Shown: positions 12,373 to 55,123, counted from the stretch's first letter. The stretch: DNA of 64,000 bases from an uncultured Candidatus Saccharibacteria bacterium (GCA_964550425.1 CAZJZB010000001.1:3509-67508), one strand, 5' to 3'. Program-made: numbers and translations. Notes: generated by a model from the letters alone, not told the origin.

Positions 12373-12422
12373 TTCTTTGTTCCTTCAGGAACCGTTCAAT
12401 CGACATGTGGAAATAGCGATGG

Positions 12423-36219: not shown

Positions 36220-37344
36220 TTATTGCGTGGAACAAACGGAACCGACAAAACAATTGCGAAGCGGATTTGCCGCACCGCGTACTTCAAAATGGAGATGCGG
36301 GCCTGTCGCCTGACCTGTCGCGCCGACGTAGCCGATAATTTGTCCGGACAAGACCGATTGGCCGGAGGATATGATAACGCTCCTCATGTGCGAGTAGAGC
36401 GTCTGTGTGCCGTTCTCGTGTGTGATGACGACGTAATTGCCGTAGCCGCCGTTCCAGCCACTGCCACGTGCCACGATAACTGTGCCGTTTGCCGATGCAT
36501 GAACCGGCGCGCCGCGCGCCGCGCCAATATCAACACCATTCCGTCCGTGCAGACCTTGCGTGATGATGCCGCCCGGCAAGGGGTTGCTGTAGTATCCTGT
36601 CGTCGCGGAACCGCCACCTCCGAGATATGATTCGCGAATAGATGAAGGGCTCGATGAGCGCACGCTTGGCGCAGGCGCGGCGATTTCTCCTCCGGGGATA
36701 ATGATGGTCGAGCCAACCACGAGTTTCTCCGCCGGATCAAGGCCGTTATATTGCGCAATTTCCTCCGCATCCGCTCCGTATTTCTTCGCGATTGATTTAA
36801 GCGTATCGCCTTTGATGATGGTGCGCTCGACGCCTGAGACAGGCAGAATGACGAGCGTATCACCCGGGTGGACATCTCGTACACTGCGGAGATTGTTTGC
36901 CCAAATAATGGTATTCACCGAGACACTAAACATGTCTGCAATCTCCGAGAGCGTATCACCCGGACGTACCACATAGACCGAAATACGGTCAGGTGGCGCG
37001 ATGTTCGTGCCATTGTCAATTACATCGGAAGGGCCCCTATAGGAAATGAGCGCAGAGTTTCCCGAAGTGGTGAGCGCTATGGGCGTACCTATGTTTGGAT
37101 TGCTGTTGATACTTGCTACAAGTACCGGCGTTGAAGCACTCGGGATAAATGTGTTCGCCGCCGCACCCGCATGGGTAGAGAAGGGCAAAAACGCGCGCGC
37201 GTAATTAGGTAGGATGATTGTGGCGAACGAGAGACCCACGAATCCTGTTATGAAAAATTGTTGGTTGAATTTTATAGGTAAACAAGGAAATGTGGCGTGT
37301 CTGAAAATACAAGAATGGCTTACATACTCTCGTATATAAGCCAT
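36220..37344 (-). CDS. LysM-domain M23 family peptidoglycan metalloendopeptidase
   Basis: Two LysM motifs (VRPGDTLSEIA; IKGDTLKSIAKKYG) and M23 HxH (GPHLHFEVR). Confidence 0.8.
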   Translation of the reverse strand: MAYIREYVSHSCIFRHATFPCLPIKFNQQFFITGFVGLSFATIILPNYARAFLPFSTHAGAAANTFIPSASTPVLVASINSNPNIGTPIALTTSGNSALISYRGPSDVIDNGTNIAPPDRISVYVVRPGDTLSEIADMFSVSVNTIIWANNLRSVRDVHPGDTLVILPVSGVERTIIKGDTLKSIAKKYGADAEEIAQYNGLDPAEKLVVGSTIIIPGGEIAAPAPSVRSSSPSSIRESYLGGGGSATTGYYSNPLPGGIITQGLHGRNGVDIGAARGAPVHASANGTVIVARGSGWNGGYGNYVVITHENGTQTLYSHMRSVIISSGQSVLSGQIIGYVGATGQATGPHLHFEVRGAANPLRNCFVGSVCSTQ

Positions 37345-37437: not shown

Positions 37438-40400
37438 GTGCGCTATATTCTGGTAGTGAAGCATCTCGAAGGATTGAATGAAGCACAAAAGCGCGCCGTG
37501 CTCGCAAAAGACGGTCCCATTTCGGTCCTCGCCGGTGCCGGAAGCGGGAAGACACGCGTGCTCGCAACGCGTATCTATCATCTTATCCGGGAGGGTGTCC
37601 TTGCGGACCAGATTCTTGCCGTCACTTTTACCAATAAAGCCGCCCGCGAGATGCGAAATCGGGTCCGCACCATGCTCGAACCCGATGACCATGCTGTTTC
37701 CGAGCCCTTCATAGCCACGTTCCACGGCCTTGGTCGAGAACTTCTCCAAAGCTATGGGAAAAGTATCGGCGTCCCTCGTTTCTTCAGCGTGTACGATCGT
37801 GATGATTCTGAGAAAGCAATAGCCGCAGCACTCAAAGCGCTTGACGTTTCAGCGAAGGAGCTCTCGCCGCGAGCGGTTTTGAGTCGCATCTCGCGCGCGA
37901 AAGGGGAGGGAATGAGAGCACACGAGTTTTATGAGAAACACGGTCGTGGGAGTTTTGGCGTGCGCATAGCCGCGGAAGCATGGCTTCGCTACGAGAAGAT
38001 TCTTGCTGCAGAAAAAGCGCTCGATTTCGATGATCTCATCGCGCTCCCTCTAAGAATGCTTGAAGAGCATGCCGATGTTCGCGAACTCGCGCAGAATCGT
38101 TGGCGTTATATCCATATTGATGAATATCAGGATACGAATGCGCTTCAGGGACGGCTCGCGAATATGCTCGCGGCGAAACACCGGAATCTTTTTGTCGTCG
38201 GTGATATTGATCAGTGCCTTATTGCCGGGACTAAAATCGCTCTGCCTGACGGATTGAAGCGACCGATAGAAACAATTAAGAAAGGCGATTTTGTTCTTTC
38301 GAACTACGGAAGCGGAGATATGCGCCCGGCACGCGTAACACGCGTTTTTTCAAAAAAAGTATCCGGCAAGCTCACACGCATAACAACCCAGAATGGCCGA
38401 GTGCTCACGAGCACGGCAGAACATCTGCATTTCGCCGGATATCGTCCCGGTCTTACTCCCCAAATGTTTTTTACCTATCTCATGTACAAACAAGGGAAGG
38501 GGTGGAGGATCGGAGTGTCGCAGACGTATACAAAAGGGCAATACAGGCCAACGATTGGATTTCAGCAACGATGTAACCAAGAGCATGGAGATGCTGTCTG
38601 GATAATTGGAACTCACGACAACTCTCAGGAAGCGCGCGTTCTTGAGTACACGCTCTCGCTTCGTTATTCTATTCCGACTTTGCCGTTTCTTGCCCGGAAA
38701 GGAAGCGTAGGCGGATACGTGCACGATCAAAAAGTTCTGGATGACATATTTACATCGTTTGATACTGAACGTAGCGCAAAAAAGTTGCTAAAGGATAGCG
38801 GTCTTTTGAAAGAATATCCGCACCATCGTGCCCAGGCGACTCGGAGCAATCGTCGTAATATCGTTGTTGCGTTTTGCGGAGAACGTCGCGGCAAGACACC
38901 CATGCATCGAATTTCAATTGTTGGAAGCGATGACGAAGGAAAGCGGTTACTGCAGAATACAGGATTTTCAGTTCGTAGAGCTAAACTTGGTTCGAAAAGC
39001 TGGCGATTTGAAACGGCCTATAAAAACTACGGAGCTCTTTTGAACGTCATTCATCATCTGCAGAGTATTTTTCCAACAGCTTATCTCGTGCGAACGGCTC
39101 GTTTGGGTGGCAAGAAAGCACGACCCAAAGATGGGAATTCACTCCCATTCCTTCCAGCGGCAAGCGTGCGTCCCGGCATGGTGCTTTTCGATGAAGGTAG
39201 TGAGTATGATGTGGTACAGGCAGTTACTCAAATATCAGCGAAATATGTTCGTGTCTACGATCTTGATATTGAACACACTCACAACTTTATTGCGAACGGC
39301 ATTGTGACGCACAATTGTATCTATACGTGGCGGGGGGCTTCTGTGGAAAATTTGCTCGAATTCGACAAAGAATACCCCGAGGCGCAGACGATCATTCTCG
39401 AACGCAATTATCGTTCCACGAAGAATCTCGTTGACGCCGCGAATGCGGTCATAGAAAAGAATAAAAATCGCAAGGAAAAATATTCGACAACTGAACGCAG
39501 CGCGGGCGAACCCATCATTGTTCATATGGCGCGCTCCGCCGAGGATGAGGCGAGTTGGATAGCCGTGAAAATACGGGAGCTGATGGCTCGCGGTATTCCT
39601 CCCGAAGATATAGCGATACTTTTCCGTACGAATTTCCAATCACGGGCGCTTGAGGAAGGGCTGCTGCGCGCCGGTGTGCCCTATAAACTCTTAGGTACGC
39701 ACTTTTTCGCGCGCAGGGAAGTGAAAGATGTTCTCGCATGGATACGCCTTTCTATAGACCCTTCGCGCGAGGTTGATAAGATGCGCGCTGCCGCGAGCCC
39801 GCCGCGCGGCATCGGCAAAGTAACGCTTGGGAAGCTCGCGGCGGGACAGCGTTCCACGCTTCGTGCGGGCGAACAGGCAAAAGTCGAGCAGTTTGAGCGC
39901 GTCATCGGCGAGCTTGCGCGCGCAGCACTCTCGCTTACTCCTTCCGAATTCGTAAAACTCGTCATTGAGAAGAGCGGCATGCGCCGCGCGCTTGTGGATG
40001 AAGGAAGCGCCGAAGACCGCGAACGCTTTGAAAACGTAGAAGAGCTTGCTTCGGTTGCGGCGCGCCATGATTCCGTACCCGGCATGGAAGGCATCGCTGC
40101 GTTCCTTGCCGAAGCCGCGCTTGCAAGCGATCAGGATGAGTTGGATCATCCCTCGAGGCACTCGGGACAGGGGGGTGAGAAGGTGGGTGTTACACTCATG
40201 ACCGTCCATGCTGCGAAGGGTCTTGAGTTCGGCACTGTCTTTGTAAGCGGTATGGAGGAGGGACTATTCCCGCATCAGGGCATGGGCGGGAATCCGCCAG
40301 CTGGCGGAGATCGCGATGAAGAAGAGGAGCGGCGGCTCTTCTATGTCGCGATGACCCGCGCAAAAGAACGTCTTTTTCTCACGCTCGCTCGCGTACGCAA

Positions 40401-40509
40401 GATCTACGGAACCGATTACGCCGCCGAACCCTCATCATTTCTTGCCGATATCGATTCCTCACTCATGCTCTATGATGAAAGCCATGGAGAAACGATTATC
40501 GAGGCGTAG
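37438..40509 (+). CDS. uvrD: UvrD/PcrA-type ATP-dependent DNA helicase, interrupted in frame by an intein
   Basis: Walker A AGAGSGKTRVL. Motif III is split: VVGDIDQ | intein | CIYTWRGA. C-terminal UvrD domains are present. Confidence 0.9.
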   Translation: MRYILVVKHLEGLNEAQKRAVLAKDGPISVLAGAGSGKTRVLATRIYHLIREGVLADQILAVTFTNKAAREMRNRVRTMLEPDDHAVSEPFIATFHGLGRELLQSYGKSIGVPRFFSVYDRDDSEKAIAAALKALDVSAKELSPRAVLSRISRAKGEGMRAHEFYEKHGRGSFGVRIAAEAWLRYEKILAAEKALDFDDLIALPLRMLEEHADVRELAQNRWRYIHIDEYQDTNALQGRLANMLAAKHRNLFVVGDIDQCLIAGTKIALPDGLKRPIETIKKGDFVLSNYGSGDMRPARVTRVFSKKVSGKLTRITTQNGRVLTSTAEHLHFAGYRPGLTPQMFFTYLMYKQGKGWRIGVSQTYTKGQYRPTIGFQQRCNQEHGDAVWIIGTHDNSQEARVLEYTLSLRYSIPTLPFLARKGSVGGYVHDQKVLDDIFTSFDTERSAKKLLKDSGLLKEYPHHRAQATRSNRRNIVVAFCGERRGKTPMHRISIVGSDDEGKRLLQNTGFSVRRAKLGSKSWRFETAYKNYGALLNVIHHLQSIFPTAYLVRTARLGGKKARPKDGNSLPFLPAASVRPGMVLFDEGSEYDVVQAVTQISAKYVRVYDLDIEHTHNFIANGIVTHNCIYTWRGASVENLLEFDKEYPEAQTIILERNYRSTKNLVDAANAVIEKNKNRKEKYSTTERSAGEPIIVHMARSAEDEASWIAVKIRELMARGIPPEDIAILFRTNFQSRALEEGLLRAGVPYKLLGTHFFARREVKDVLAWIRLSIDPSREVDKMRAAASPPRGIGKVTLGKLAAGQRSTLRAGEQAKVEQFERVIGELARAALSLTPSEFVKLVIEKSGMRRALVDEGSAEDRERFENVEELASVAARHDSVPGMEGIAAFLAEAALASDQDELDHPSRHSGQGGEKVGVTLMTVHAAKGLEFGTVFVSGMEEGLFPHQGMGGNPPAGGDRDEEEERRLFYVAMTRAKERLFLTLARVRKIYGTDYAAEPSSFLADIDSSLMLYDESHGETIIEA
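38215..39315 (+). other. intein (Hint domain, 367 aa) inserted in helicase motif III
   Basis: Starts with Cys (CLIAGTKIAL), block B TSTAEHLHF, C-terminal block VYDLDIEHTHNFIANGIVTHN followed by a +1 Cys. The central ~200 aa is a possible degenerate endonuclease region. Confidence 0.8.
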
Positions 40510-40513
40510 ATAA

Positions 40514-42820
40514 ATGAGCTATACTCATTATATGAAAAAGGTTTTGGTTTCCATATCGATAATCGCAATAGTTGTTATTGGTGTAGTGCTCACGTCTTTA
40601 TTTTTTACTAAACCGGAAAGTATTACAACAAAAGATATTTCGTTGCCGCAAAAGACAAATAATACTTCTTGCGCTGTGATTTCATCTGCAAACAAGGTCT
40701 ATTGTTTTGGTGGACGCGATGGCAATATCGACTATGATTCCATTATCGAATACGACTTAACGAAAAAGGTTTTAGAAACAAAATCTACTAAATTACCAGC
40801 GCCAACTTTTGGTCATTCATGTGTGGAAGATTCTGGCTCAAATAAGATTTACTGTTTTGGTGGATACAGTCCATCATTCTCTTCCGCAATATTTGAATAC
40901 AACCCTCAAGATGGTGATCTAAGAACAAAGTCGGCGTATTTACCAAAAGGAACTGGCGGAATCTCCTGCGCAGAATTTCCTGAAAATCACAAAATTTATT
41001 GCTTCGGTGGATTCACAGGAGAAAGTATACCCGGACCATTAACCGAAGGTTCTTATGGAGAAGGAATCTATCGGAACGCGTTTGTGATGTCTAGTCAGAT
41101 TACGGAATACGACCCGAGTACAGACGCTATTGCAGTAAAGAAATCTGTTTTCCCTGATGGCAGAGATGACACTTCTTGTGTTTATAGTGTGAAAACTCAA
41201 AAAATTTATTGTTTTGGTGGAGGCAATGCGGACAGTGCCTTTGATCAAATTCTTGAATATGATCCATCCGTTGATAAATTGGCTATCAAGGAAGCAAAGT
41301 TACCAGCAAAAATGGAAATCCTATCGTGTGCCGAGAATTCCAATAACAAAATTTATTGCTTCGGCGGCAAAACCATCAGAGCTGATCAAAGCAGTATTCT
41401 GTATAATAAAATTTCAGAATATGATCCTGTTGCAGACCGGTTAGTTACAAGACCAATAACGTTGCCAGTCGCAATTGGCGGTCTTCAATGCGTTAAAGAT
41501 TCATCAACTCCTAACAATATACTTTGTTTTGGCGGTTGGGCAGAGAAATCATCGGATTTAATTTTCGAATATTACCGAGGAAATAAGATTTATCAGATAA
41601 TAGAATTTATTAAGAAATTTAAGCCCGTCCTACCTACTTGGCTAGAAAAAGCTTTTCAATTTGGCAGTGGTTCCTCAGATACCGTATATGACATGTATTG
41701 CGTTTCCCCGATAAAAATTCCTTTAGAGCAATCCGTTAATGCAGTTTCTGAAAGTGCTTCCCAATTATTTATTGACAAATTATATGAGAGTAGTTTGGAG
41801 GATTTAACATCTAATCTTAAAAATAAAATATATATTAATTCAGAAATACCAACCGCTCTTGCTCACATGGGAGTCAAATTGATACAAGCCGATCAATTTG
41901 ATGACGCCCTTGCTTTTCTTCAATGCGATGCTGAAAAATATTATCACTCGAGATCAATGTACATGCTTGCTCAGGTATATAAACATGGGAGCGCCGATTA
42001 TTTTCCTGGCTCGGTTATGAAAACAAAAATCGAACCAGATTTGAAGCAATCATATTTTTGGATTGCGGCCTTAATGCATATAGAATCTATAGAGAACAAT
42101 GGTCTTTTGGATATGTCGGATTCCGGCTGGAGTATTATTGGACTACTCGATTCTTTGCAGAATGATTCGTCTTTGAGTGACAATGCTCTTTTAACCAAAG
42201 AGCAGGAAGCCATCTCATTTGTGGGGAAAAGATACCCGGAAGTTCTTAATGGAGAAGCGTCTGTTTATGCCCACTCAATGCGCGCAATGATTCCTGCATT
42301 GGAAAATCCAGGAACCATTAAAAAAGAATCTAACAAACCTCCTACAGAACCAATTACTCCCAATATTGTCGTCGGTGCATATGTTAATAAAACGCACGGA
42401 TTAAGTATGCGTGTACCCACAGGATGGGCTTTTGATGAGAGCAACGCATACACGGTGTCTGGTGGACTTGTAGGAAGTATTGGAACTTTCTACGACCCAA
42501 AAATTGGTAGGGGTAGTGATAATGCATCTGCTCCGGATATATGGATACACTTTGGTTCTGCTAACGGGGCAGATTTGGATACCATTACGACGGATTTCCC
42601 AATAGAGAGTAAAAAAGTAATGATCTTAAAAAACGGTCTGCAGGCAGAAATTATCGTTTGGACATATACCGACCAAAAAAGGGGGCCTCGAAAACTTTTA
42701 AAACTAAACGTTATAAAAAACGATATCCTCTATTCTGTTGTGGGAGAATCGCTTGAATCAGACTGGGTGAAATATGGGAAATTAATTGAATCATCTGTAT
42801 TAACGTTCGATTTCATTTAA
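40514..42820 (+). CDS. membrane-anchored Kelch-type beta-propeller repeat protein with a C-terminal helical domain; AT-rich gene
   Basis: Six repeats of N/HK(I/V)YCFGG spaced ~50 aa apart; N-terminal TM helix. Confidence 0.6.
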   Translation: MSYTHYMKKVLVSISIIAIVVIGVVLTSLFFTKPESITTKDISLPQKTNNTSCAVISSANKVYCFGGRDGNIDYDSIIEYDLTKKVLETKSTKLPAPTFGHSCVEDSGSNKIYCFGGYSPSFSSAIFEYNPQDGDLRTKSAYLPKGTGGISCAEFPENHKIYCFGGFTGESIPGPLTEGSYGEGIYRNAFVMSSQITEYDPSTDAIAVKKSVFPDGRDDTSCVYSVKTQKIYCFGGGNADSAFDQILEYDPSVDKLAIKEAKLPAKMEILSCAENSNNKIYCFGGKTIRADQSSILYNKISEYDPVADRLVTRPITLPVAIGGLQCVKDSSTPNNILCFGGWAEKSSDLIFEYYRGNKIYQIIEFIKKFKPVLPTWLEKAFQFGSGSSDTVYDMYCVSPIKIPLEQSVNAVSESASQLFIDKLYESSLEDLTSNLKNKIYINSEIPTALAHMGVKLIQADQFDDALAFLQCDAEKYYHSRSMYMLAQVYKHGSADYFPGSVMKTKIEPDLKQSYFWIAALMHIESIENNGLLDMSDSGWSIIGLLDSLQNDSSLSDNALLTKEQEAISFVGKRYPEVLNGEASVYAHSMRAMIPALENPGTIKKESNKPPTEPITPNIVVGAYVNKTHGLSMRVPTGWAFDESNAYTVSGGLVGSIGTFYDPKIGRGSDNASAPDIWIHFGSANGADLDTITTDFPIESKKVMILKNGLQAEIIVWTYTDQKRGPRKLLKLNVIKNDILYSVVGESLESDWVKYGKLIESSVLTFDFI

Positions 42821-42892
42821 TACAGAGCCAAGATACTTTGTCCCCAACATGATGATTATCTTAACTTGCGCATCGTGTGATACACTCATCTC

Positions 42893-43237
42893 ATGGATGC
42901 CATTCTCTTTATCGTAGGTATAGTAATGCTGATAAAAGGTAATATACAAGCTACCTCACACAGTGAGATTTCTAAGACAGCCGGAAGAGTGCTCGGTATT
43001 TTGTTACTATTGCCGGGTCTCAATGCTTTTCTGTACGGATTTCTCTCAAAACAACAAGGAGTCACTTTTTGGAATACATTAAATCAACCGTGGGTAGAAT
43101 CAGAAATCTTTCCGCTAGGGGTAGATCTTCAATCGGCTTTACTGGTTTTAGCGTTTGTAGCGATTTTGATCACAATTTTATTTTTTCGTAAACCAATCGG
43201 CATAGTTCCATCGCCGACACCTTCGACTCTTCTTTAA
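42893..43237 (+). CDS. small hypothetical membrane protein (AT-rich)
   Basis: Three hydrophobic helices. Confidence 0.4.
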   Translation: MDAILFIVGIVMLIKGNIQATSHSEISKTAGRVLGILLLLPGLNAFLYGFLSKQQGVTFWNTLNQPWVESEIFPLGVDLQSALLVLAFVAILITILFFRKPIGIVPSPTPSTLL

Positions 43238-43294
43238 AAACATTTGAATTTAATTAAATTGCATCCAGAATCACAGGTGATACACTTTTGATAT

Positions 43295-43537
43295 ATGGCT
43301 ACAACCAAAGAACGGATTCTGGTAACGCTGACGTCTGAAATGGCGAGGGCCGTGCGTGGTTACGCAAAACGAGACCGTGTATCGCAGGCATCTGTCTTTA
43401 CGCGCGCTATGCGTGCACTGATTGAAGATGAAGAGGACAAATATTTATCGGCAATAGGAGACAAAATTGCCGAGAATCCCGGGAAATTTATTTCTTCACG
43501 TGAATTCTGGAAACGGGTAAACAAGCGTCGCGCATGA
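43295..43537 (+). CDS. ribbon-helix-helix (CopG/ParD-like) antitoxin
   Basis: ERILVTLTSEMARAVRGYAKRDRVSQASVFTRAMRALIE. Confidence 0.6.
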   Translation: MATTKERILVTLTSEMARAVRGYAKRDRVSQASVFTRAMRALIEDEEDKYLSAIGDKIAENPGKFISSREFWKRVNKRRA

Positions 43538-43800
43538 GTCGTTATTCCATTAGTTTTACTAAACGAGCTGAAGATGATGCCGTTCGTCTCGATGCTTTTA
43601 TATTGGAACGCGCCAAATTGGCGATAGGAACAAAACTTGTGGTTGACCCATTCCGTTTCGGTAAATCGCTTGGATATTCTTTGCGCCATGTACGAGCGCT
43701 TCGAGTCGGCGACTGGCGTGTACTGTATCAAATTTCTGGCGCTGCAGTCATAATCCTCACAATTCGACATCGCAAGCAGGGTTATAGTGACCTCGCATAA
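43534..43800 (+). CDS. type II toxin RelE/ParE family
   Basis: LRVGDWRVLYQISGAAVIILTIRHRKQGY; 4-nt overlap with the antitoxin. Confidence 0.7.
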   Translation: MSRYSISFTKRAEDDAVRLDAFILERAKLAIGTKLVVDPFRFGKSLGYSLRHVRALRVGDWRVLYQISGAAVIILTIRHRKQGYSDLA

Positions 43801-44600
43801 TGCGCGCTAAAAAGAGTTTGGGCCAACACTTCCTGATGCACGCGCGCATCGCGGAGAGGATCGCGATGGTCGCGAATCTCGCGCACGATGACACCGTACT
43901 GGAAATAGGTCCGGGGACAGGGATGCTCACCCGCGCGCTGTTGCAGCGCGCGGGGAAGGTGGTGGCGATTGAAGCGGATTACGAACTTTTTTTGAAGTTG
44001 CACATTGAGTTTGCAAGTGAGATCGCGGATGGTCGCCTCAAACTCATACACGGCGACATCCGCAAATATCCACTAAATACTGCTATAGCAGAAAATAGTG
44101 GATACCATGTAGTGGCGAACATCCCCTACTATCTCACTGGCGAAATATTTCGAATGTTTCTTGAATCATCGAATCAACCAAGTGCGATAACGCTTCTTGT
44201 GCAGAAGGAAGTTGCCGAGCGTATCGCTCGCACAAAAAAGCCCCTCGACTTCGCTCGGGGTAAAGAAAGCATCCTCTCGCTCTCGGTGAAGGCGTACGGA
44301 ACAGCGAAGTATGAATTTACTGTACCGCGTGGGGCCTTTAAGCCCGCACCGAACGTTGACTCTGCAGTACTCACCATTCGTGATATTTCACGGAAAAACT
44401 TTTCAACGCTTGAGGAAGAACGGCGGTTCTTCGCTCTTATTCATGCGGGGTTCGCGCATAAGCGCAAATTCGTGCGGAATAATCTCGTTGATGCTGGTCT
44501 CCCTACCGGGGACATTCCCCTGAAAGCCCGCGCCGAAGACCTGTCGCTCTCTGTATGGATTTCCCTGAGCAAAATCGAAGGGCTTGGTATAAGTAGATAA
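43800..44600 (+). CDS. rsmA: 16S rRNA (adenine1518/1519-N6)-dimethyltransferase
   Basis: SLGQHFL, EIGPGTGMLT, NIPYY motifs. Contains a copy of the nested-palindrome repeat in frame. Confidence 0.85.
   Translation: MRAKKSLGQHFLMHARIAERIAMVANLAHDDTVLEIGPGTGMLTRALLQRAGKVVAIEADYELFLKLHIEFASEIADGRLKLIHGDIRKYPLNTAIAENSGYHVVANIPYYLTGEIFRMFLESSNQPSAITLLVQKEVAERIARTKKPLDFARGKESILSLSVKAYGTAKYEFTVPRGAFKPAPNVDSAVLTIRDISRKNFSTLEEERRFFALIHAGFAHKRKFVRNNLVDAGLPTGDIPLKARAEDLSLSVWISLSKIEGLGISR
44065..44108. repeat. nested-palindrome dispersed repeat, copy 2 (inside the rsmA coding sequence)
   Basis: AATATCCACTAAATACTGCTATAGCAGAAAATAGTGGATACC. Confidence 0.7.
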
Positions 44601-44696: not shown

Positions 44697-45713
44697 ATGA
44701 GGGAAAATATTCTAGAACATTGGCGTATTCTTACCGCAACACTCTTCTCGGTAGTGCTTATTGGCGGCGTGTATGTGCTTGGGCGCGGTATTGAATCGCC
44801 TTCACGCGCGCAGGCCTCCGCCGAGACAGCGCTTTTGCAGGCGATCGCGACAAAGGACGCTGACGGCGACGGCCTCCCTGATTGGGAAGAGGTTCTCTAC
44901 GGTACCTCTCCGAGCACTACCGATACGTTTCATCTCGGCATGACCGATGGGGAGGCGGTCGCTCGAGGTCTTATTGTGCCGAAGGCGATTGCCGATATTC
45001 CCGTCGCCGGTTCGGAGACATCGCCCTCGGGAGCACCCTCGGAGGGAACTATTACCGCCGCTTTCGCAAAAACATTTTTCACGCTCTATCTCGCCGCGAA
45101 GCAGGCGAGCGGCGGAGCGGATCTTTCCGAAAGCGACATGAGCAATGTCGCCAATCAAGCGTTGCAGTCGCTTTCAACATCTCTCGCCGCCGCGCCTGAT
45201 TTTAAATCCGCAAAAGACCTCACTGTGCAGGGTGCGGGCGCAGAGGCGCTTAAAGAATTTGCTGTGCGGGCCGAAGCGGTGCTCTTGAGGAAATCGAGCA
45301 ATGCGACGAAGAGTGAAATTCTATATCTGCAAGACGCGGTTGAGAAGAACGATACCGAGGCACTTTTATACATATCCTCCATAGCGAAGGCGTATCGGGA
45401 ATCCGCCGTTGGGCTTGCGGTACTCCCCGTGCCTGCGGAGCTCGTGGGAGACGACCTCGCGCTCGTAAATGCGCTCATGCGTATAAGCCAGATAGCCGAC
45501 GACTTCACTAAAGTGAATGATGACCCATTGGCGACCATACTTGCATTGCAGCAATATCCGCAAGCAGTGCTCGCTCTCGGCAACGCGTTCATACACGTCG
45601 GTACGATATATAAAACAGCCAATATTTCCCTCCCTGCGGGCGCGCCCGGCGCTACCTTCGTGAATCTCATGCAGAATATCGCCGCAAGCCAGCAAGCCGC
45701 CAAGAAGCCATGA
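44697..45713 (+). CDS. membrane-anchored hypothetical protein with a DxDxDGxxDxxE calcium-binding-like motif
   Basis: N-terminal TM helix; DADGDGLPDWEE; first gene of a three-gene overlapping set. Confidence 0.5.
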   Translation: MRENILEHWRILTATLFSVVLIGGVYVLGRGIESPSRAQASAETALLQAIATKDADGDGLPDWEEVLYGTSPSTTDTFHLGMTDGEAVARGLIVPKAIADIPVAGSETSPSGAPSEGTITAAFAKTFFTLYLAAKQASGGADLSESDMSNVANQALQSLSTSLAAAPDFKSAKDLTVQGAGAEALKEFAVRAEAVLLRKSSNATKSEILYLQDAVEKNDTEALLYISSIAKAYRESAVGLAVLPVPAELVGDDLALVNALMRISQIADDFTKVNDDPLATILALQQYPQAVLALGNAFIHVGTIYKTANISLPAGAPGATFVNLMQNIAASQQAAKKP

Positions 45714-47836
45714 AGCCATCTTTTTTTTATAAAACGCTTGCCATACTCCTTGCTGTCGTACTCATTACGCCTTCTGCGTTTTTCATCGCTCCTCAGAAAG
45801 TGCACGCACAACTTCAGGGACCCACCTTCGAGGGTCCTACACTGGACGTCGCCTCTGGTGCTGGTGTTTTGCAGGGACCAACCCAGAGTGGAGCTACCTT
45901 AGATGTTGCACCCGCTGGCTGCTTATCAACTATTGCGGCGGCAACTGCCGCTGTAGCAACGGAGTTCGGTCTTTCTACCGGAGTTAAACCCCATGGTGCT
46001 AGTCCAGGCAACCTTTTACTTGGAGCTGGTCAATGCGTCACGAGTGCCATCTCTCTCATCCAGGAGAGCATCACCGCCGCCTCGCAAGTTACGGGTACCG
46101 CCGCGCTTGTCGCCATGCAGATCGACGCGTATGTCCTCCAACCGCTCGCTTTTGTCCTATCGGGGAAACTGCTGAAGGCGATAACCGAGGGTGTCATAGC
46201 GTTTGTCATCGGCAAGGCCAACGGCACTGGCATTCCGCAGTTCGTGGCGGACATACAAGTATCTCTGCAGACGGTGTCAGACGTACACACGCTTGCATAT
46301 CTCGACCAGTACATGCGGAGTTCACAATCGCCTTATTCCGGTTCAATCGTATCTGCGCTTCGCAAAGAATATTTTAATAAAACATCCCTCGCCGGATTCT
46401 GGGCTAGAAATATGGATACATTGCGCGCGACATCGCCCAATCCCTACGGCTACCTCAACGGCAACTGGGCGCTCGGCGGCGTGGAAGCGTGGTTCGCGCT
46501 CACGACTCAAATTCAAAACAATCCCTACGCGCTGTATCCAAGTGTTCGCGACCAGCTCGCGAGCGTTATCGGGCCGGGTGTCGGCGGCGCCACCGGCGCG
46601 CGTCTTGCTGATCTAGCTCATGGCGGCGGCTTCGTGTCGTGGTGCGGCGAGAGCGACGGCATGCTCGGCGCAATCTCGACGACTGACACTGCCGGCGTGA
46701 ACGCAGCCGCCGTCGACGAATCCGCTAACGCCGCCTATGACGCCGCCTACGCCGCCGCAAAAAGTTCCGGCAAATCTGAACGCGAGGCCGAGGCCGCCGC
46801 CGGTGCCGCTCAGAAAGCTGAAAAAGCCGCCGCTCTTGCTCGCGCAAAAGCGGCGAATACCAGCAATAAATTGATTGGTACAGGTATCGCTCCCGGGGAC
46901 CCATGCACCAATGCAGACGGCACAACGGGTACCATTAAGACACCTGCCTCGGTTATCACAGCATCTCTCAATAAAGTGCTTGGCGGCCAGCAGGACTCGA
47001 TTGTCCGGATGGGTAACGTAGGCCCTGAAATCAATAATATCTTAGGCAATATCGCGACTGTCTTGAAGACCGTGGACTTCGCGGTAAAAATCTTAGGCGG
47101 CCCCGGTTCCGGCGGCCTTTTCGGAGTCAATAAACCATCTGGCTCAAATGCAACTTCGCAACTTCGGCAATATACGAATTCGCCGGGCAATCTGGGCGTT
47201 ACCAATTCCAATGTGTTCGCAACTGCCGCAACGCTTACAACATCCGGCTCCGATATGTTGGATCGTGCGGCGCAGTATGAGTCGGCCGTGAATACTATTC
47301 GGAGTGCGGCAAATACCGCGTCAACGAACATTACGTCCCTCGTTGACTTCTGTATCGCCCAACAAGCAGTTGCATCAAGCACTTTAGCAAGTACCGGCAA
47401 TGCGACAGACCTGACAAATCTTGCTAACTTTACAAATACCAGCACGGCTCAAATAAGCGTCGCGCAGACCGCGCTCGCGACAGAAATCGCGCCGATACTC
47501 GCTCAAACGGCTGCCGCTTCTACAACCATCGCGGCGGCGCGCGCGATGGTGCAGAAGGTACAGAATGCGAACGCTACAGGAGCCGGCAACACCGCCGATA
47601 TACTGACGCTCCAAAATATGCCGCCAACGCCCGCCGACCTGGCAAATGCGCAACAGGCAACTCTAAAAACCGGCGCGCAAATGGCGACAGCGAGCCCCAC
47701 CGGCTCACTCACTGTTTCCGGCCCCATTCTCATTGACCGGCTGGAGCTCATCGGTATAAATGCGACGGCACTTAAGGGCTCTGCTTGCACCGCGCCGACA
47801 CCAACGCCTCTGGTCCCGCTTACGCCTCCCATTTAA
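45710..47836 (+). CDS. large secreted Ala/Thr/Gly-rich protein (708 aa), hypothetical
   Basis: Signal peptide, duplicated GPTxxGxTLDVA segment; 4-nt overlap with the previous gene. Confidence 0.5.
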   Translation: MKPSFFYKTLAILLAVVLITPSAFFIAPQKVHAQLQGPTFEGPTLDVASGAGVLQGPTQSGATLDVAPAGCLSTIAAATAAVATEFGLSTGVKPHGASPGNLLLGAGQCVTSAISLIQESITAASQVTGTAALVAMQIDAYVLQPLAFVLSGKLLKAITEGVIAFVIGKANGTGIPQFVADIQVSLQTVSDVHTLAYLDQYMRSSQSPYSGSIVSALRKEYFNKTSLAGFWARNMDTLRATSPNPYGYLNGNWALGGVEAWFALTTQIQNNPYALYPSVRDQLASVIGPGVGGATGARLADLAHGGGFVSWCGESDGMLGAISTTDTAGVNAAAVDESANAAYDAAYAAAKSSGKSEREAEAAAGAAQKAEKAAALARAKAANTSNKLIGTGIAPGDPCTNADGTTGTIKTPASVITASLNKVLGGQQDSIVRMGNVGPEINNILGNIATVLKTVDFAVKILGGPGSGGLFGVNKPSGSNATSQLRQYTNSPGNLGVTNSNVFATAATLTTSGSDMLDRAAQYESAVNTIRSAANTASTNITSLVDFCIAQQAVASSTLASTGNATDLTNLANFTNTSTAQISVAQTALATEIAPILAQTAAASTTIAAARAMVQKVQNANATGAGNTADILTLQNMPPTPADLANAQQATLKTGAQMATASPTGSLTVSGPILIDRLELIGINATALKGSACTAPTPTPLVPLTPPI

Positions 47837-47838
47837 CT

Positions 47839-49998
47839 ATGCGCCGCTTTACCATTCCACTCATTGTTCTCGCACTCGTCATAAGCGCGGCGGGCGTTGC
47901 GCCCGCCGCGCTTGCACAAACGTGTGAAGCGGGGTGTAAACTCGGCTCTCTTGAGGGTATAGAGCAATGCGTTTCTATCAACAATCCTTTAAAGTCCTGC
48001 GACGCAACGAAAGCTGCCGCCACCAAAGTCGCTGCAGAAAAGAACGCCAACGACCCCGCCAACGACCCTTCCTCCCAAATACCCCTCCCTTTTGGGGGTG
48101 GCGGCATCTTCGCCTCTGTCATGACGTTCCTTATGAGCATTTTCGCGTGGCTCTTGGGCGTGGCGATGGTGATGCTTGATTACTCGGTGCTCTACACTGT
48201 TATCAAGATGGGAAGTTATGTGAAAGCACTCCCCGCTATCGGTGTCGCCTGGAGCATCTTGCGCGACATTGGCAACATCACGCTCATATTCGGCTTTCTT
48301 GCCATCGGCATCTCGATCATTCTTAATACCGAGAAACTCGGCTACGGCAAAAAGATGCTCCCGATGCTTCTTGTCGCCGCCGTTTTTCTCAATTTCTCAC
48401 TGTTCATATCCGAAGCGGTCATTGACACGGGCAATCTCTTCGCGACCCAGTTCTACACGCAGATCAATGGCGGCATTCCGGCAGGGAATAAGTCAACTTC
48501 AAACGAAACCATCTCGGGCAAGATTATGTCCCAACTAGGGCTCCAGACCCTGTACGGTGCCGCGCTCAGTGAAGAACGAATTAAGAAAGAGATATTTAAA
48601 GAAGACAATATCGGGTTCATAAGCATTATGGGTATTTTGCTTTTCATCGTCGCGGCGTTCGTGATGTTCTCGCTCGCATTCATACTCATCGCGCGTTTCG
48701 TCGCGCTCATCTTCCTCATCATCCTTGCGCCTATCGGCTTTGCGGGGCTCGCGATACCACAGCTTGCTCCATCGGCGAAGAAGTGGTGGGACACGCTTTT
48801 TGAACAGACCATCACCGCGCCGATCCTATTGCTTCTTCTCTATATAGCTCTCCTTGTCATCACAAACGACAATTTCATATTTGATCCCATTGCCGGTAGC
48901 AAGCCGGATTATTTGGGATTTATTCAGGCCACAAACGGAACATTTAATTTACCCGGCCTAGCAAGCATCTTGCTTTCCTTCCTTGTCGCGATGGGGCTCC
49001 TACTCGCGGTTACTATTTTTTCAAAAAAGTTGGGCGCCTTCGGCGCCGACTGGGCGACGAAGACCGCTGGCAAACTCACCTTCGGTGCGACTGGTTTGGT
49101 CTTGCGCTCGACGGTCGGATTAGGGTCATATGCTGCTTCAAGGGCAATACGCTTAAGTAAAAATAAATATTACGGTAATAAAACAAAAGTCGGGCGCGTG
49201 CTTGCGGGAACATTCGATCGTGGGGCGAAAGCAAGTTTCGATGTACGCGGTGCTACAACGCTTGGCGGTCTAAAAGCGGCTGGCATTGAAGCCGGAGAGG
49301 CACAAAAAGGTGGATATCGCGAACGACAAGAAAAAGCTATTGAGTCGCACAAAAAGTACATCCAATCTGTTACTGCAGCTATTGATGAGCGCGGAGCAAC
49401 AAAAGAAGAGGAAGCAAAAATCGCAGCAGCGGAAGCAGCACAAAAGAGTGCACAAACGGCATATGAAACCGCGGAGGAAAAATACAAAACAGCGAAAGAG
49501 CAACTCGATCCACAAATTGCACAACAGAAGGCAGAAATCGAACGTCTTGAGAAAGAAAAGGATCGGAATGATAAATTCTTACCGCCAAATCCAGAAATTG
49601 AGCAAAAACTTAAGGATGCTCGACAGAATCTCTTGACAAGCACGATGAGTTTTGCAACCGAGAACGAGAAATTTAAAAAAGCGACCGGAGATTTTGAGAC
49701 CGCAAAAAAAGCAGTGATAGACGCAAACAGAGTTCCAAGCAAAAGGATTTCAGACGAGAAGAGAGATGCCCAACTAGGGCATGCTGAGAATATTAAGGGT
49801 TCATTGCCGGGCTTGGTAATGTTTGGTCCCGGCGGATCGCTAGCAGCTAAAAAGATCATTAAAGATGCGAAAAAGGATCAAGTAGCAATGGATCGTGACC
49901 GAATGAGAAAATTATTCGAAACAATGGATAAAGAACTAGGTGAGGAAAAGAAAGAGGAGAAGCATGAAGAGGAAGCATCCCAATCAAAGCATCTATGA
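47839..49998 (+). CDS. polytopic membrane protein with an N-terminal Cys-rich periplasmic segment and C-terminal charged coiled-coil tail (TrbL/VirB6-like topology)
   Basis: Signal peptide, four Cys in the first 60 aa, six or more TM helices, ~300-aa Lys/Glu-rich tail. Starts 3 nt after the previous stop. Confidence 0.45.
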   Translation: MRRFTIPLIVLALVISAAGVAPAALAQTCEAGCKLGSLEGIEQCVSINNPLKSCDATKAAATKVAAEKNANDPANDPSSQIPLPFGGGGIFASVMTFLMSIFAWLLGVAMVMLDYSVLYTVIKMGSYVKALPAIGVAWSILRDIGNITLIFGFLAIGISIILNTEKLGYGKKMLPMLLVAAVFLNFSLFISEAVIDTGNLFATQFYTQINGGIPAGNKSTSNETISGKIMSQLGLQTLYGAALSEERIKKEIFKEDNIGFISIMGILLFIVAAFVMFSLAFILIARFVALIFLIILAPIGFAGLAIPQLAPSAKKWWDTLFEQTITAPILLLLLYIALLVITNDNFIFDPIAGSKPDYLGFIQATNGTFNLPGLASILLSFLVAMGLLLAVTIFSKKLGAFGADWATKTAGKLTFGATGLVLRSTVGLGSYAASRAIRLSKNKYYGNKTKVGRVLAGTFDRGAKASFDVRGATTLGGLKAAGIEAGEAQKGGYRERQEKAIESHKKYIQSVTAAIDERGATKEEEAKIAAAEAAQKSAQTAYETAEEKYKTAKEQLDPQIAQQKAEIERLEKEKDRNDKFLPPNPEIEQKLKDARQNLLTSTMSFATENEKFKKATGDFETAKKAVIDANRVPSKRISDEKRDAQLGHAENIKGSLPGLVMFGPGGSLAAKKIIKDAKKDQVAMDRDRMRKLFETMDKELGEEKKEEKHEEEASQSKHL

Positions 49999-50693
49999 AC
50001 CAAGACCAACCAGAACTTACTTTTGATGAAAGCGTGAAGCAGGTAATGCAAAACCTGCCGCCGGTCATACGCGCTTATCTCGCGCAAGGGAAGTACACCA
50101 CGGTCGCAAAAAATCTTATGACTAAATACGGTCTTCGTGTTGACCAAGCGGGCGTTCTCGAGCGGGAGACCATGTTGCTTTTGATGGGTATAGAGAACCC
50201 GGACGAGTTCATGCAAACGCTCATTGAGGAAGCAAAACTGGATAAAAAAATCGTTGACGGCATCGTGCAGGATGTGAATATGCAGATTTTCATTCCCTTG
50301 CGGCAGGAAGAAATGAAAGGCGAGCGAATCCATTTGGAGAACAAAATTTCTCTTCATCCGGCGCTGGCGGCACCGCAAGCCGCTCCACATTCGCTCAAAG
50401 CTATTGGTGGCGCAGCGCATCTTGTCGCGATTGCGTCTCCAAAAGCACTAAACAACAAGATGCTTGAAGACCATGAAGAGCCGCACATTGAATTCACCAA
50501 CATGGCGCCGCCGCTACGAGCGCGAACCGCGCCCCCGCCGCCGAATCTCCCCGGCGCGATGCCGAGTGTAACAACAGCCAACAGCCAACCGTTACCTCCC
50601 AACAAAATTTCACAACCCCCTGTGCCGCCCCCTCGTCCACCAGTGAAGCCATATTCAATCGACCCTTATCGGGAGCCAATTGACGAGAAATAA
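49995..50693 (+). CDS. hypothetical protein with a Pro-rich C-terminus
   Basis: 4-nt overlap with the previous gene. Confidence 0.45.
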   Translation: MNQDQPELTFDESVKQVMQNLPPVIRAYLAQGKYTTVAKNLMTKYGLRVDQAGVLERETMLLLMGIENPDEFMQTLIEEAKLDKKIVDGIVQDVNMQIFIPLRQEEMKGERIHLENKISLHPALAAPQAAPHSLKAIGGAAHLVAIASPKALNNKMLEDHEEPHIEFTNMAPPLRARTAPPPPNLPGAMPSVTTANSQPLPPNKISQPPVPPPRPPVKPYSIDPYREPIDEK

Positions 50694-50740
50694 AAGAGAA
50701 ATGTGGATAACTGGCGGACGCAGATGTTATACTTGCGGTC

Positions 50741-51073
50741 ATGTTGACTCCTTCCGATAAAAAATTCCTGACAGAAAACTTCGCGACGAAGAAAGAGCTT
50801 AAAGAAGTGCGCGATAGTGTCGATCTCGTCCGACAAAAGCTTACGACATTGAGTATCGAGAGATTCGATTTCAACTCGCGGCTCGCCTCGATAGAGGCAT
50901 CTTCTTTTCGAACTGAAGAAAAGATTGATAAGTTGATAACTATTGGTGAAGGTAATGCTGGAAATATTGCTGACCTGCAACAGGAAAATAAGATGGGCGC
51001 CATCACGCTTCGCCGATATGGAATCCAAATCGGGGAGTTGGCAAAAGCGGCGAAAACGAAAATCTCCCGTTAG
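50741..51073 (+). CDS. hypothetical small coiled-coil protein
   Basis: ORF only. Confidence 0.4.
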   Translation: MLTPSDKKFLTENFATKKELKEVRDSVDLVRQKLTTLSIERFDFNSRLASIEASSFRTEEKIDKLITIGEGNAGNIADLQQENKMGAITLRRYGIQIGELAKAAKTKISR

Positions 51074-51110: not shown

Positions 51111-51130
51111 CCCGCGTTCGCGGGTTTTCT
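51111..51130 (+). terminator. short GC hairpin plus T-run immediately before rpsL
   Basis: CCCGCG-ttc-GCGGG-TTTTCT. Confidence 0.4.
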
Positions 51131-51132: not shown

Positions 51133-51546
51133 ATGGCAACAATCAATCAACTCTCCAAAAGAGGCCGAAAGGACCGGTCGCGCAAAACAAGCGTGCCCGC
51201 TCTTGCGCGCGGTTTTAATGCGCTCAAGAATCGCCCGACGTATTACGCTTCGCCTTTCAAGCGCGGCGTCTGCACGAAAGTGACTACAAAGACCCCAAGG
51301 AAGCCAAACTCCGCTATCCGTAAAATCGCCCGTGTGCGTCTCACTAACGGCATGGAAGTAACCGCTTATATCCCGGGCGAGGGACACAACCTGCAAGAAC
51401 ACTCGGTCGTATTGCTTCGCGGCGGGCGTGTGAAGGACGTCGGCGTTCAGTACACCGTCGTGCGCGGCAAACTCGATACCGCAGGTCTCGAGAAGCGCCG
51501 TCGCTCGCGCTCGCGCTACGGTGCCAAGCGCCCTGTGGCGAAATAA
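51133..51546 (+). CDS. rpsL: 30S ribosomal protein S12
   Basis: MATINQL... PKKPNSALRK. Confidence 0.95.
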
Positions 51547-54420: not shown

Positions 54421-54489
54421 ACGGTTAATGTTCCTTAACATCGCCTCATATCTTCAGTATAGCGTGTGTATGTGTGGTATAATCCGCGC

Positions 54490-54783
54490 ATGAACCCGAC
54501 GCTTGAAGAGATATCGGAGAAAGCACGACCCGTATTTGAAAAATATGGTGTGAAGCGTGCGCGCATCTTCGGCTCCTATGCGCGTGGCGAGGCTCGTCTT
54601 GATAGCGACATTGACCTTCTCCTCGATTTTGAAAAACCACTCGGTTTTGAGTTTTATACTGTCCATGAAGAACTTGCGGAAAAGCTCGGTCGCGAGGTGG
54701 ATGTAGTGACCGAAGGAAATATGAATAAATTTCTCCGTCCGTACATCATGCCTGATGTACGTCCACTGTATGAAAAGCGATAG
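54490..54783 (+). CDS. MNT-type nucleotidyltransferase antitoxin (type VII TA)
   Basis: RIFGSYARGEARLDSDIDLL. Confidence 0.65.
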   Translation: MNPTLEEISEKARPVFEKYGVKRARIFGSYARGEARLDSDIDLLLDFEKPLGFEFYTVHEELAEKLGREVDVVTEGNMNKFLRPYIMPDVRPLYEKR

Positions 54784-55123
54784 TCCCTACATTGCACAGA
54801 TGCTCGAATGTGCTGCGAAGATAGGGCGATATGTCGGCGAGATGAGTTACGAAGAGTTTCTCAAAGATGAAAAAACACAGAGTGCAGTACTGATGCAATT
54901 GCAGCAGATGGGCGAAATGGCAAAGCGAGTTTCTGAGAAAACGAAAACCGAAGTCGATGTGCCATGGAAGAAAATTGCTGGTTTCCGAGATGTAGTCGCA
55001 CATGACTATGTAGATGTTGATCTTGAGAACGCGTGGAAGATAATTTCTCTCGATCTAACTCAAACCGAGGCACCACTCGTTGCATATCTTAAGGAGCACC
55101 CTCTTCCAGAAATTAAAAACTAG
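54770..55123 (+). CDS. HepT-like (DUF86) RNase toxin
   Basis: Rx4HxY motif (FRDVVAHDY); overlaps the MNT gene by 14 nt. Confidence 0.65.
   Translation: MKSDSPYIAQMLECAAKIGRYVGEMSYEEFLKDEKTQSAVLMQLQQMGEMAKRVSEKTKTEVDVPWKKIAGFRDVVAHDYVDVDLENAWKIISLDLTQTEAPLVAYLKEHPLPEIKN

Follow-up and report, generated by a model that had tools for sequence, protein, structure and literature searches.

A gene block upstream of rpsL is very probably the VirB6-containing half of a split Patescibacteria chromosomal type IV secretion system

INTRODUCTION

Patescibacteria carry a chromosomal type IV secretion system (T4SS) that is MPF_FATA-like and has its VirB4 in a 'Patescibacteria clade' (Quinonero-Coronel et al. 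2025, PMC12102498). Table S3 of that study lists VirB6, an unassigned gene, VirB3, TrsD and VirB4 in this order. Moreover, KsgA is abundant near virB4, VirB6 is very divergent, VirB8 is almost undetectable, and T4SS components located away from virB4 are known, for instance in Rickettsia (PMC12102498). The Patescibacteria T4SS is reported as the first to be essential for its own carrier (PMC12857230). The T4SS locus is essential in Southlakia epibionticum (Wang et al. 2023, cited in PMC12857230). In the literature on Saccharibacteria, systems of this type lack a relaxase and are essential for epibiotic growth. The term 'extended VirB6' refers to the Rickettsiales RvhB6 paralogues and to VirB6 homologues of 700-900 aa, TcpH among them, in MPF_FA systems (PMC12857230). 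In HMM surveys of Patescibacteria, VirB6 is reported as scarce and VirB8 and VirB5 as nearly absent.

Here, we analysed a 64-kb stretch of DNA (the window), in which an initial annotation had noticed an envelope operon centred on a VirB6/TrbL-like polytopic protein directly upstream of rpsL.

RESULTS

Gene content of the locus

All predicted ORFs were confirmed at the coordinates first assigned to them (Table 1). The initial annotation had described a five-gene operon with three coupled genes. The conserved unit consists instead of four tightly packed genes, gA-gB-gC-gD (44697-50693): gA and gB share an ATGA overlap, gB and gC are spaced by 2 nt, and gD overlaps gC by 4 nt, which extends the coupling from three genes to four. 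The fifth gene, gE, is kept in just 6 of 80 closely related loci, has a weak DUF16 match and is flanked by a promoter-like site (50704-50733) and a terminator-like hairpin (51111-51124); this gene is variable filler at the rearrangement junction and lies outside the conserved module.

Table 1. Coordinates of the block and of its neighbours in the 64-kb window
Gene	Position	Strand	Length	Description
ksgA/rsmA	43800..44600	+		16S rRNA dimethyltransferase; Pfam RrnaAD E 1e-40
gA	44697-45713	+	338 aa	TM helix and TSP3 loop
gB	45710-47836	+	708 aa	Secreted
gC	47839-49998	+	719 aa	VirB6/TrbL-like
gD	49995-50693	+	232 aa	Cytoplasmic
gE	50741-51073	+	110 aa	Coiled-coil
rpsL	51133-51546	+		Opens the str operon (rpsL-rpsG-fusA-tuf)

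The tight junctions of the block were found across 63 genomes, with the 4-nt overlap kept in 56 of them, and all four ORFs are intact in ∼60 species-level genomes. The recurrence of the same order and junctions in these ∼60 genomes indicates that the block is not due to chance. Homologues of its genes come exclusively from Kaiserbacteria, Paceibacterota or Patescibacteria MAGs. Searches of gA to gE against Pfam, NCBIfam, PHROGs and PADLOC gave nothing informative save a weak TSP3 match (see later in the text), and a prophage or defence-system origin is unsupported, the PHROGs and PADLOC searches being uninformative.

Gene order in related genomes

We compared a close and a distant set of 80 loci each, the distant loci being retrieved via relatives of gA. 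The order uvrD-ksgA-gA-gB-gC-gD is conserved across both sets. The 5' edge of the locus is marked by ksgA, present upstream of gA in 68/80 close and 57/80 distant loci. Among the 59 close loci with enough downstream sequence, 56 continue from gD to rpsL, the gap between these two genes often being only 71-115 nt. By contrast, rpsL directly follows gD in none of 20 distant loci. In all these 20 loci, of Paceibacteria type, and in the other three of the 59 close ones (23 in total), gD is followed by PrgI/VirB3, a TrsD-like gene and VirB4. The place before rpsL, to which the block had been thought to belong, very probably stems from a rearrangement confined to one subclade.

T4SS-pilin genes also lie downstream of gD in the unsplit loci. 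In one of them, L144, Pfam identified PrgI (E 1.7e-10), P-loop_TraG/AAA_10/DUF87 (E 8e-27) and T4SS_pilin (E 1.4e-4). Orthologues of three genes of the window are found inside this bona fide T4SS cluster: gB corresponds to the gene in the same slot (E 4e-10), gC has its orthologue there (E 3e-28), and gD aligns with the gene between VirB6 and PrgI (hhalign probability 98%, E 8e-14); relatives of gA retrieved such loci. The opposition between the 56 close loci and the 23 unsplit ones points to the block as the 5' half of the T4SS locus already published for Patescibacteria, parted from its ATPase half. The ancestral layout, kept in related Paceibacteria, would be ksgA, gA, gB, gC (VirB6), gD, PrgI (VirB3), TrsD and VirB4, followed by a secreted protein and a VirB2-like pilin. 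A break between gD and prgI in the window's own Kaiserbacteria subclade would have placed the gA-gD half immediately before rpsL, with the ATPase half elsewhere in the genome.

As already noticed in the initial annotation, no ATPase partner accompanies the block. Pfam scans of the larger ORFs and tblastn with VirB4, PrgI and TrsD of related loci revealed no VirB4, VirB3, TrsD, VirD4, T4SS pilin or relaxase in the 64-kb window, and these negative searches lend no support to an ATPase hidden there. The PilB/PilC genes at 10-14 kb of the window belong to a type IV pilus. VirB4 is reported in three of four genomes with the split arrangement (L004, L005 and L062; PMC12102498 Table S1); the fourth, L073, is listed as negative and is a draft MAG.

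Alternatively, the block could be a novel module for envelope or adhesion functions that works autonomously on a VirB6-like scaffold, without any T4SS ATPase, and is co-expressed with the str operon. This would fit the lack of an ATPase within 64 kb, the VirB4-negative split genome and a pre-rpsL position that is stable in the close genomes, often with a narrow gap. We consider it unlikely, since the same four orthologues are contiguous with PrgI-TrsD-VirB4-pilin in the 23 unsplit loci, VirB4 is reported in three of the four split genomes cited above, and the Rickettsia precedent shows that T4SS parts can lie away from virB4 (PMC12102498). The novel stand-alone module without ATPase that had been proposed is thus very likely the upstream half of a known MPF_FATA-like cluster.

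The polytopic protein gC

The topology initially described for gC holds for the signal peptide, the four Cys (29/33/44/54), the TM helices and the charged tail; its length is 719 aa, not 720. From residue 87 to residue 401, the protein has ∼6-7 helices of hydrophobic character (hydropathy segments 87-119, 143-165, 172-196, 255-311, 319-349 and 367-401, with which the AF2 helices agree), and thus the at least five expected of VirB6/TrbL. Its 6-7-helix core (residues ∼87-440) is conserved: many of the residues are invariant, and the mean majority frequency is 0.74. It is followed by a charged coiled-coil tail of ∼280 aa, predicted to be cytoplasmic, in which 38% of the residues are charged. The Cys-rich head is the least conserved region, family members having 0, 2, 4 or 12 Cys, always an even number; lineage-specific and variable, it was rejected as a functional signature.

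The top five PDB matches of gC in Foldseek are all TrwI/VirB6 (prob 0.75-0.99), so that the structural comparison suggested at the outset ranks this family first. Two fold-search methods both place VirB6 first among natural proteins, with DotA (T4SS) next, and the predicted model of gC has the fold of a solved VirB6 (TrwI, R388). Among 70 gC family members, 12 match Pfam TrbL (best 22.5 bits, cut-off 25.9) and two match TrbL_4 (26.6, cut-off 27), with a best E of 5e-6; none of the 70 reaches the curated threshold of TrbL (PF04610) or a related model. The gC of the window has no Pfam match, and neither phmmer nor the gC profile retrieved VirB6 among PDB sequences, the output being empty or limited to coiled-coil noise from the tail. 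In other loci than the window, the gC orthologues adjoin VirB3 and VirB4 genes. On the basis of fold, weak family matches in Pfam and gene neighbourhood, gC is a remote "extended" VirB6/TrbL homologue, which backs the call first made from topology; from its long coiled-coil tail we infer the 'extended VirB6' type.

It is very unlikely that gC is an unrelated polytopic helical protein with generic bundle similarity, in a block that merely neighbours T4SS genes in some lineages. This explanation has to face three independent lines, namely the TrbL/TrbL_4 matches in 14 family members, the first rank of VirB6 in both fold searches and the next rank of DotA, a second T4SS protein. In addition, gC holds, relative to VirB3, TrsD and VirB4, the VirB6 position published in Table S3 (PMC12102498).

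Features of gA, gB and gD

The most conserved gene of the block is gA, with at least 690 homologues, the best 120 of which are 63-89% identical, and with 149 full-length clusters (50% identity) at a threshold of E≤1e-30. In line with the membrane-anchored protein with a calcium-loop-like motif initially described, it has a single N-terminal hydrophobic helix (TM helix or uncleaved signal) and the segment DADGDGLPDWEE at residues 54-65. This is one copy of a TSP3-type calcium-binding loop (DxDxDGLxDWEE), with the DxDxDGxxDxxE motif of the bacterial TSP3 repeat; gA also has a conserved Ala/Leu-rich extracytoplasmic domain. The match of gA to Pfam TSP3_bac (PF18884) is weak (E 0.0035, 17.6 bits, cut-off 25). 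The loop is invariant in alignments of the family; homologues score above the threshold and are named 'thrombospondin type 3 repeat-containing protein' by NCBI, and the L144 orthologue reaches 39.5 bits with two repeats. The gA profile had no match at E≤10 among PDB sequences, VirB8-like structures included, phmmer with gA was equally negative, and a full-text literature search for thrombospondin in CPR gave nothing relevant.

For gB, the length of 708 aa, the signal peptide, the richness in Ala, Thr and Gly (17, 10.5 and 9.5%) and the duplicated GPTxxGxTLDVA segment were all confirmed. The N-terminal core of the protein is conserved, its middle is of low complexity and rich in Ala, and its C-terminal part is a bundle of long helices. 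The GPT duplication sits in an insertion that is lineage-specific and absent from most homologues, and was discarded as a functional signature because of this variability. The AF2 model has a pLDDT of 67, with residues 330-385 and 510-700 above 90, and is confident over ∼40% of residues. No sequence match to the PDB was found with phmmer or with the profile, and this partly confident model retrieved generic helical bundles alone in Foldseek (E≥1). A VirB5-like gB is not supported, as neither the PDB profile search nor the fold of the same model gave a VirB5 match (TraC, TrwJ, CagL).

In gD, the helical N-domain (∼115 aa) is conserved, the Pro-rich linker is variable and carries the short motifs LLEDHEEPHIEF and PPNLPGAMPP, and the C-terminal peptide, YSxDPYREPI[DE], is invariant. 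The C-terminal DPYRE is present in 70/80 close loci, whose flanks contain no other copy, and is kept in the distant unsplit loci. A full-text literature search for the DPYREP motif gave nothing relevant.

The separation from the ATPase genes and the variable fillers at the junction, gE among others, could also mark a decaying remnant, in which the half-locus lost its function after the rearrangement and is drifting. Such decay is hardly credible for a block with four intact ORFs in ∼60 species-level genomes and a 4-nt overlap so widely kept, and it does not fit the identity among the best gA homologues, the constancy of the gC TM core or the invariant C-terminal motif of gD.

DISCUSSION

Taken together, these results make it very probable that gA-gD are the envelope-facing, VirB6-containing half of the Patescibacteria chromosomal T4SS, split off by rearrangement. 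Homology of all three large proteins to a characterised housekeeping system, named at the outset as the finding that would speak against a novel module, is absent, gA and gB matching nothing. The secretion or host-interaction role suggested initially is reasonable; since the T4SS of this type in Saccharibacteria has no relaxase and is needed for growth as an epibiont, the machine is probably for host interaction and not for conjugation.

By analogy with TrwI of R388, gC may oligomerise in the membrane as a platform or stalk base, and VirB2-like pilins and/or substrates might pass through it, energised by VirB4, TrsD and VirB3. gA, gB and gD, which match no known family, are candidate unrecognised T4SS components; we found no description of them as such in the literature consulted on Patescibacteria T4SS. 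Gene location and topology would suit gA as a bitopic membrane-anchored scaffold with a calcium loop, in the role of the otherwise undetectable VirB8, and gD as an adaptor in the cytoplasm that docks onto another component by way of its C-terminal DPYREP peptide. On the same grounds, gB could be an extracellular partner mounted on VirB6, as its gene occupies the VirB5/TrbJ slot of diderm operons.

A more far-reaching proposal, which we hold possible rather than probable, is that gA, gB and gD are core T4SS parts across Paceibacteria, with gB as the monoderm equivalent of VirB5 (stalk or tip), gA as the VirB8 replacement and gD as a tether. In such a machine gA would be calcium-dependent, and gD would use DPYREP to link the tail of the extended VirB6 with the VirB4/TrsD motor. 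If so, the envelope and motor halves need not share a locus for their expression, and one of the two loci would be in line with the str operon.

The locus shows that Paceibacteria do encode a very divergent extended VirB6, always with three further conserved proteins, and gA, gB and gD are concrete candidates for those envelope parts of this T4SS that are missing so far. Genes annotated as 'hypothetical' before rpsL in Kaiserbacteria can be linked to T4SS even without a nearby ATPase, and scans restricted to ±20 genes around virB4 miss the gA-gD half.

Compared with known components, gA resembles VirB8/PrgL/TcpC in being bitopic with an extracytoplasmic domain. However, it has no sequence similarity to VirB8-like PDB entries and carries a TSP3 calcium loop that is absent from VirB8. 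Like VirB5/TrbJ, gB is a secreted and largely helical protein whose gene lies immediately 5' of VirB6, but it is three times larger and shows neither sequence nor fold similarity to VirB5. TrwI/VirB6 of R388 (PDB 7O3V, 8RT9, 8RTD) has 8-18% identity with gC and ∼340 aa against 719. With respect to TrwI, TrbL and TrbL_4 (PF19597), gC adds a cleavable-looking signal peptide, the variable Cys-paired head and the ∼280-aa coiled-coil tail; unlike TrwI, it comes from a monoderm and lacks a recognisable VirB5 partner. It shares with the 'extended VirB6' proteins, by description, the at least five hydrophobic helices, a large C-proximal hydrophilic domain and a similar size; genes for such proteins can likewise lie away from virB4 in Rickettsia. 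However, its tail is a Lys/Glu coiled coil, unlike the domains described there, and its VirB4 lineage is MPF_FATA-like, not MPF_FA or MPF_T.

Finally, the locus shares with the Patescibacteria T4SS the phylum, the ksgA neighbour, the gene order in orthologous loci, the lack of a nearby relaxase and a chromosomal, single-copy state. It differs in that the sequence of gC itself falls below the HMM thresholds used for VirB6 calls, and in that, in the subclade of the window, the VirB6 half is parted from the VirB3/TrsD/VirB4/pilin half and abuts rpsL.

Organization of the gene block between ksgA and rpsL

Five consecutive ORFs, here named gA to gE, lie between ksgA and rpsL, and the ORF list reproduced the coordinates proposed for them in the initial annotation, which described a novel five-gene envelope operon with three translationally coupled genes. 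ATGA overlaps are present at both gA/gB and gC/gD, and only 2 nt separate gB from gC; the packed genes are therefore four and not three, although the tight packing itself stands. The ATG at 47839 was favoured as the gC start over an upstream TTG by the homologue alignment.

We scanned one genome per species and obtained a close set of 80 loci. With the window proteins as tblastn queries, the order uvrD-ksgA-gA-gB-gC-gD-rpsL-rpsG-fusA-tuf was found on a single strand in essentially every locus of sufficient length. The junctions were tight in 63 genomes, with a 4-nt overlap of gA and gB in 56 of them, mostly 1-7 nt gaps or short overlaps between gB and gC, and gaps of 3-31 nt between gC and gD. 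gE was detected in only 6 of the 80 loci and is not conserved. A promoter-like site bearing an extended -10 precedes gE, and a GC-rich hairpin followed by a T-run is located 9 nt 5' of the rpsL start codon; these elements suggest that gE is transcribed separately, as a small unit inserted at the rearrangement junction.

Features of the window discussed in the text
Feature	Position	Strand	Length	Remark
Prepilin with N_methyl motif	7519-8226			Type IV pilus cluster
588-aa ORF	8223-9989		588 aa	Type IV pilus cluster
PilC/T2SSF	10024-11259	-		Type IV pilus cluster
PilB/T2SSE	12423-14171	-		Type IV pilus cluster
LysM + Peptidase_M23 hydrolase	36220-37344	-		Just 5' of uvrD
UvrD/PcrA helicase with intein	37438-40509	+	1023 aa	
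Low-GC interval	40514-43800			Between uvrD and ksgA
gA	44697-45713		338 aa	ORF list
gB	45710-47836		708 aa	ORF list
gC	47839-49998		719 aa	ORF list
gD	49995-50693		232 aa	ORF list
Promoter-like site	50704-50733			Just 5' of gE
gE	50741-51073		110 aa	ORF list
Hairpin + T-run	51111-51124			5' of rpsL
rpsL	51133-51546			ORF list; 3' of gE, then rpsG, fusA, tuf
MNT-like/HepT-like pair	54466-55123	+		fusA-tuf gap
PG_binding_1-trypsin protein	57276-59282			

None of the five proteins passed the curated cut-offs of Pfam or NCBIfam or matched PHROGs, and PADLOC returned one marginal match, for gE only. Searches of PDB sequences gave no match for gA (also as a profile), gB or gC. Hundreds of homologues exist for each of gA, gB and gC, all of them in MAGs of Patescibacteria that bear the labels Kaiserbacteria, Paceibacterota or Parcubacteria. 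They are annotated as hypothetical, except that the gA homologues have the NCBI name 'thrombospondin type 3 repeat-containing protein'. gA is the best conserved of the three, with 63-89% identity among its best 120 matches.

gC is a remote VirB6/TrbL homologue

Hydropathy and composition confirmed the topology first assigned to gC: a signal peptide, a head with Cys at positions 29, 33, 44 and 54, ∼6-7 hydrophobic helices and a hydrophilic C-terminal tail of ∼280 aa (38% K/E/R/D). Precomputed TrbL-type Pfam marks are present on a few homologues, and 12 of 70 family members matched TrbL (PF04610) and 2 of 70 TrbL_4 (PF19597), all just under the curated cut-offs. Residues 1-492 were modelled with AlphaFold2 from 107 sequences; the pLDDT was 79.9 overall and above 90 in the transmembrane core. 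In a Foldseek search of the PDB, the top five matches of this model were TrwI/VirB6 chains of the R388 type IV secretion system (T4SS), at probabilities of 0.75-0.99 over ∼300 columns and with weak E-values; nothing else in the PDB exceeded a probability of 0.5. The family profile did not find VirB6 among PDB sequences. Three independent lines concur that gC is a VirB6/TrbL homologue, albeit a remote one, and the family call of the initial annotation was correct.

Conservation across the family is lowest in the extracellular head (residues 27-88). Its Cys count across homologues is 0, 2, 4 or 12 and never odd, which suggests that this exposed loop evolves fast and carries disulfide pairs.

The block is one half of a T4SS locus

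The interpretation of the block is settled by its synteny in distant relatives. A gA profile run against 1.84 billion cluster representatives retrieved 149 full-length relatives at E≤1e-30; the most distant, ∼25% identical to gA of the window, were aligned and used to scan metagenome contigs, which yielded 80 further loci. The order uvrD-ksgA-gA-gB-gC-gD is kept in these loci, and rpsL follows gD in none of them. Instead, downstream genes encode proteins of ∼140, ∼210 and ∼610 aa, a small membrane protein, a secreted ∼350-aa protein and a ∼360-aa protein. In L144, a distant reference locus, Pfam identified PrgI, which is VirB3-like (E 1.7e-10), VirB4 (P-loop_TraG, E 8e-27, plus AAA_10, DUF87 and TraC_F_IV) and T4SS_pilin (E 1.4e-4) among the downstream genes, and the 210-aa protein occupies the TrsD slot of the literature. 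By sequence and profile comparison, gC (E 3e-28), gB (E 4e-10) and gD (98% probability) of the window are orthologous to L144 genes.

Among loci in which gC was followed by 4.5 kb or more of sequence, PrgI-TrsD(-VirB4) lies downstream in 20 of 20 distant loci, whereas rpsL does so in 56 of 59 of the close set; the remaining three (L061, L065 and L076) carry PrgI-TrsD-VirB4. gA, gB and gC stay together, with gD, in close and distant loci, but not always before rpsL (0/20 distant). The proposals of a novel autonomous module and of a block intrinsic to the region before rpsL are not supported. The block is the VirB6 half of a known Patescibacteria T4SS locus, parted in one subclade from the VirB3/TrsD/VirB4/pilin half. 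No VirB4, VirD4 or relaxase gene was found within the 64-kb window, the sole part of this genome searched, in accordance with the earlier remark that no ATPase was visible.

Distantly related Paceibacteria loci share 71-73% identity in VirB4 (∼610 aa), while their gA-gD are only 20-36% identical to the window copies (L144 15537-16169 and equivalents in L061, L065, L076 and ∼24 distant loci). The envelope-facing half evolves far faster than the cytoplasmic motor.

The partner proteins gA, gB and gD

gA has a single N-terminal hydrophobic helix, and its DADGDGLPDWEE motif, noted initially as calcium-loop-like, is indeed a calcium loop of the TSP3 type (Pfam TSP3_bac, E 0.0035). Hydropathy also bore out the signal peptide of gB. 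Its N-terminal core is strongly conserved, with motifs including LQPLAFVLSG...GKANGTGxPQFVxD, GNWxxGG..WFALTTQ.QNNPY, SWCG and GDPCT..DGT.G.IKTPGSVI, and is followed by a variable middle; the duplicated GPT segment reported earlier is present, but it is confined to an insertion missing from most homologues. In the AlphaFold2 model of gB, high confidence is limited to a helical hairpin (330-385) and a long-helix bundle (510-700), and a fold search of the PDB gave nothing specific. A VirB5-like fold is not supported, as the model did not match VirB5. In 70 loci the C-terminus of gD is an invariant YSxDPYREPI[DE] peptide, a motif absent elsewhere in the flanks, and the DPYREP terminus is also kept in the distant unsplit loci, those in which gA-gD run on into PrgI/TrsD/VirB4. 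From topology and gene position, gA would be a VirB8-like scaffold, gB an extracellular partner of VirB6 and gD a cytoplasmic adaptor.

Neighbouring genes

In about one-third of related genomes, a secreted PG_binding_1 protein (∼325-385 aa; motif NLSLGSSGPQV.ALQ..LN.DP.TRIA) is encoded on the minus strand between ksgA and gA, divergent to gA (L006, L012, L013, L017, L022, L028, L030-L032, L039, L040, L042, L044, L053, L055, L057, L068 and L077). Its C-terminal Cys-containing domain (VPFGG...PC...LG.YTPG..AC) also occurs as a separate secreted neighbour of ∼118-170 aa. This protein could be a cell-wall-remodelling, VirB1-like T4SS accessory. The window has no such gene between ksgA and gA; a PG_binding_1-trypsin protein is encoded elsewhere in it. 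The LysM/Peptidase_M23 cell-wall hydrolase may be functionally linked to the T4SS, because VirB1-like proteins at Patescibacteria T4SS loci bear M23 and LysM domains (PMC12102498).

The rest of the window comprises housekeeping genes and the genes of a type IV pilus (PilB, PilC and a prepilin; 7519-14171), a system separate from the T4SS genes. In uvrD, Pfam placed Intein_splicing and Hint between the N- and C-terminal UvrD domains; uvrD ORFs of several distant loci are ∼650 aa. The uvrD-ksgA interval is low in GC (42-43% versus 50-56% in the adjoining sequence) and encodes a Kelch-repeat protein of 768 aa, a membrane protein of 114 aa and a ParE toxin, the last preceded by an antitoxin-like gene. 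It looks like an acquired island, since the uvrD-ksgA distance is much shorter in many related loci. The str operon is interrupted between fusA and tuf by a toxin-antitoxin pair made up of an MNT-like nucleotidyltransferase and a HepT-like RNase.

Comparison with known systems

A chromosomal, relaxase-poor, MPF_FATA-like T4SS is widespread in Patescibacteria, and KsgA is one of the families enriched around its virB4 gene (Quinonero-Coronel et al. 2025, PMC12102498). VirB6 detections were few ('extreme sequence divergence'), and VirB8 was almost undetectable (PMC12102498). Because Table S1 of that study lists VirB4 in three of four matched split-type genomes, those with gA-gD cut off before rpsL (L004, L005 and L062, not L073), the ATPase half is usually kept elsewhere in split genomes; VirB4 is also listed for unsplit L061. 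The split layout conceals the VirB6 half, with its three conserved, uncharacterized partners gA, gB and gD, from virB4-centred surveys. In Saccharibacteria, epibiotic growth requires their version of this T4SS (PMC12857230), and gC, with its ∼6-7 helices and ∼280-aa hydrophilic tail, fits the 'extended VirB6' described there. Finally, Table S3 of PMC12102498 shows, for individual genomes, the order VirB6, an unassigned gene, VirB3 (PrgI), TrsD and VirB4, the same as gC-gD-PrgI-TrsD-VirB4 of the unsplit loci.
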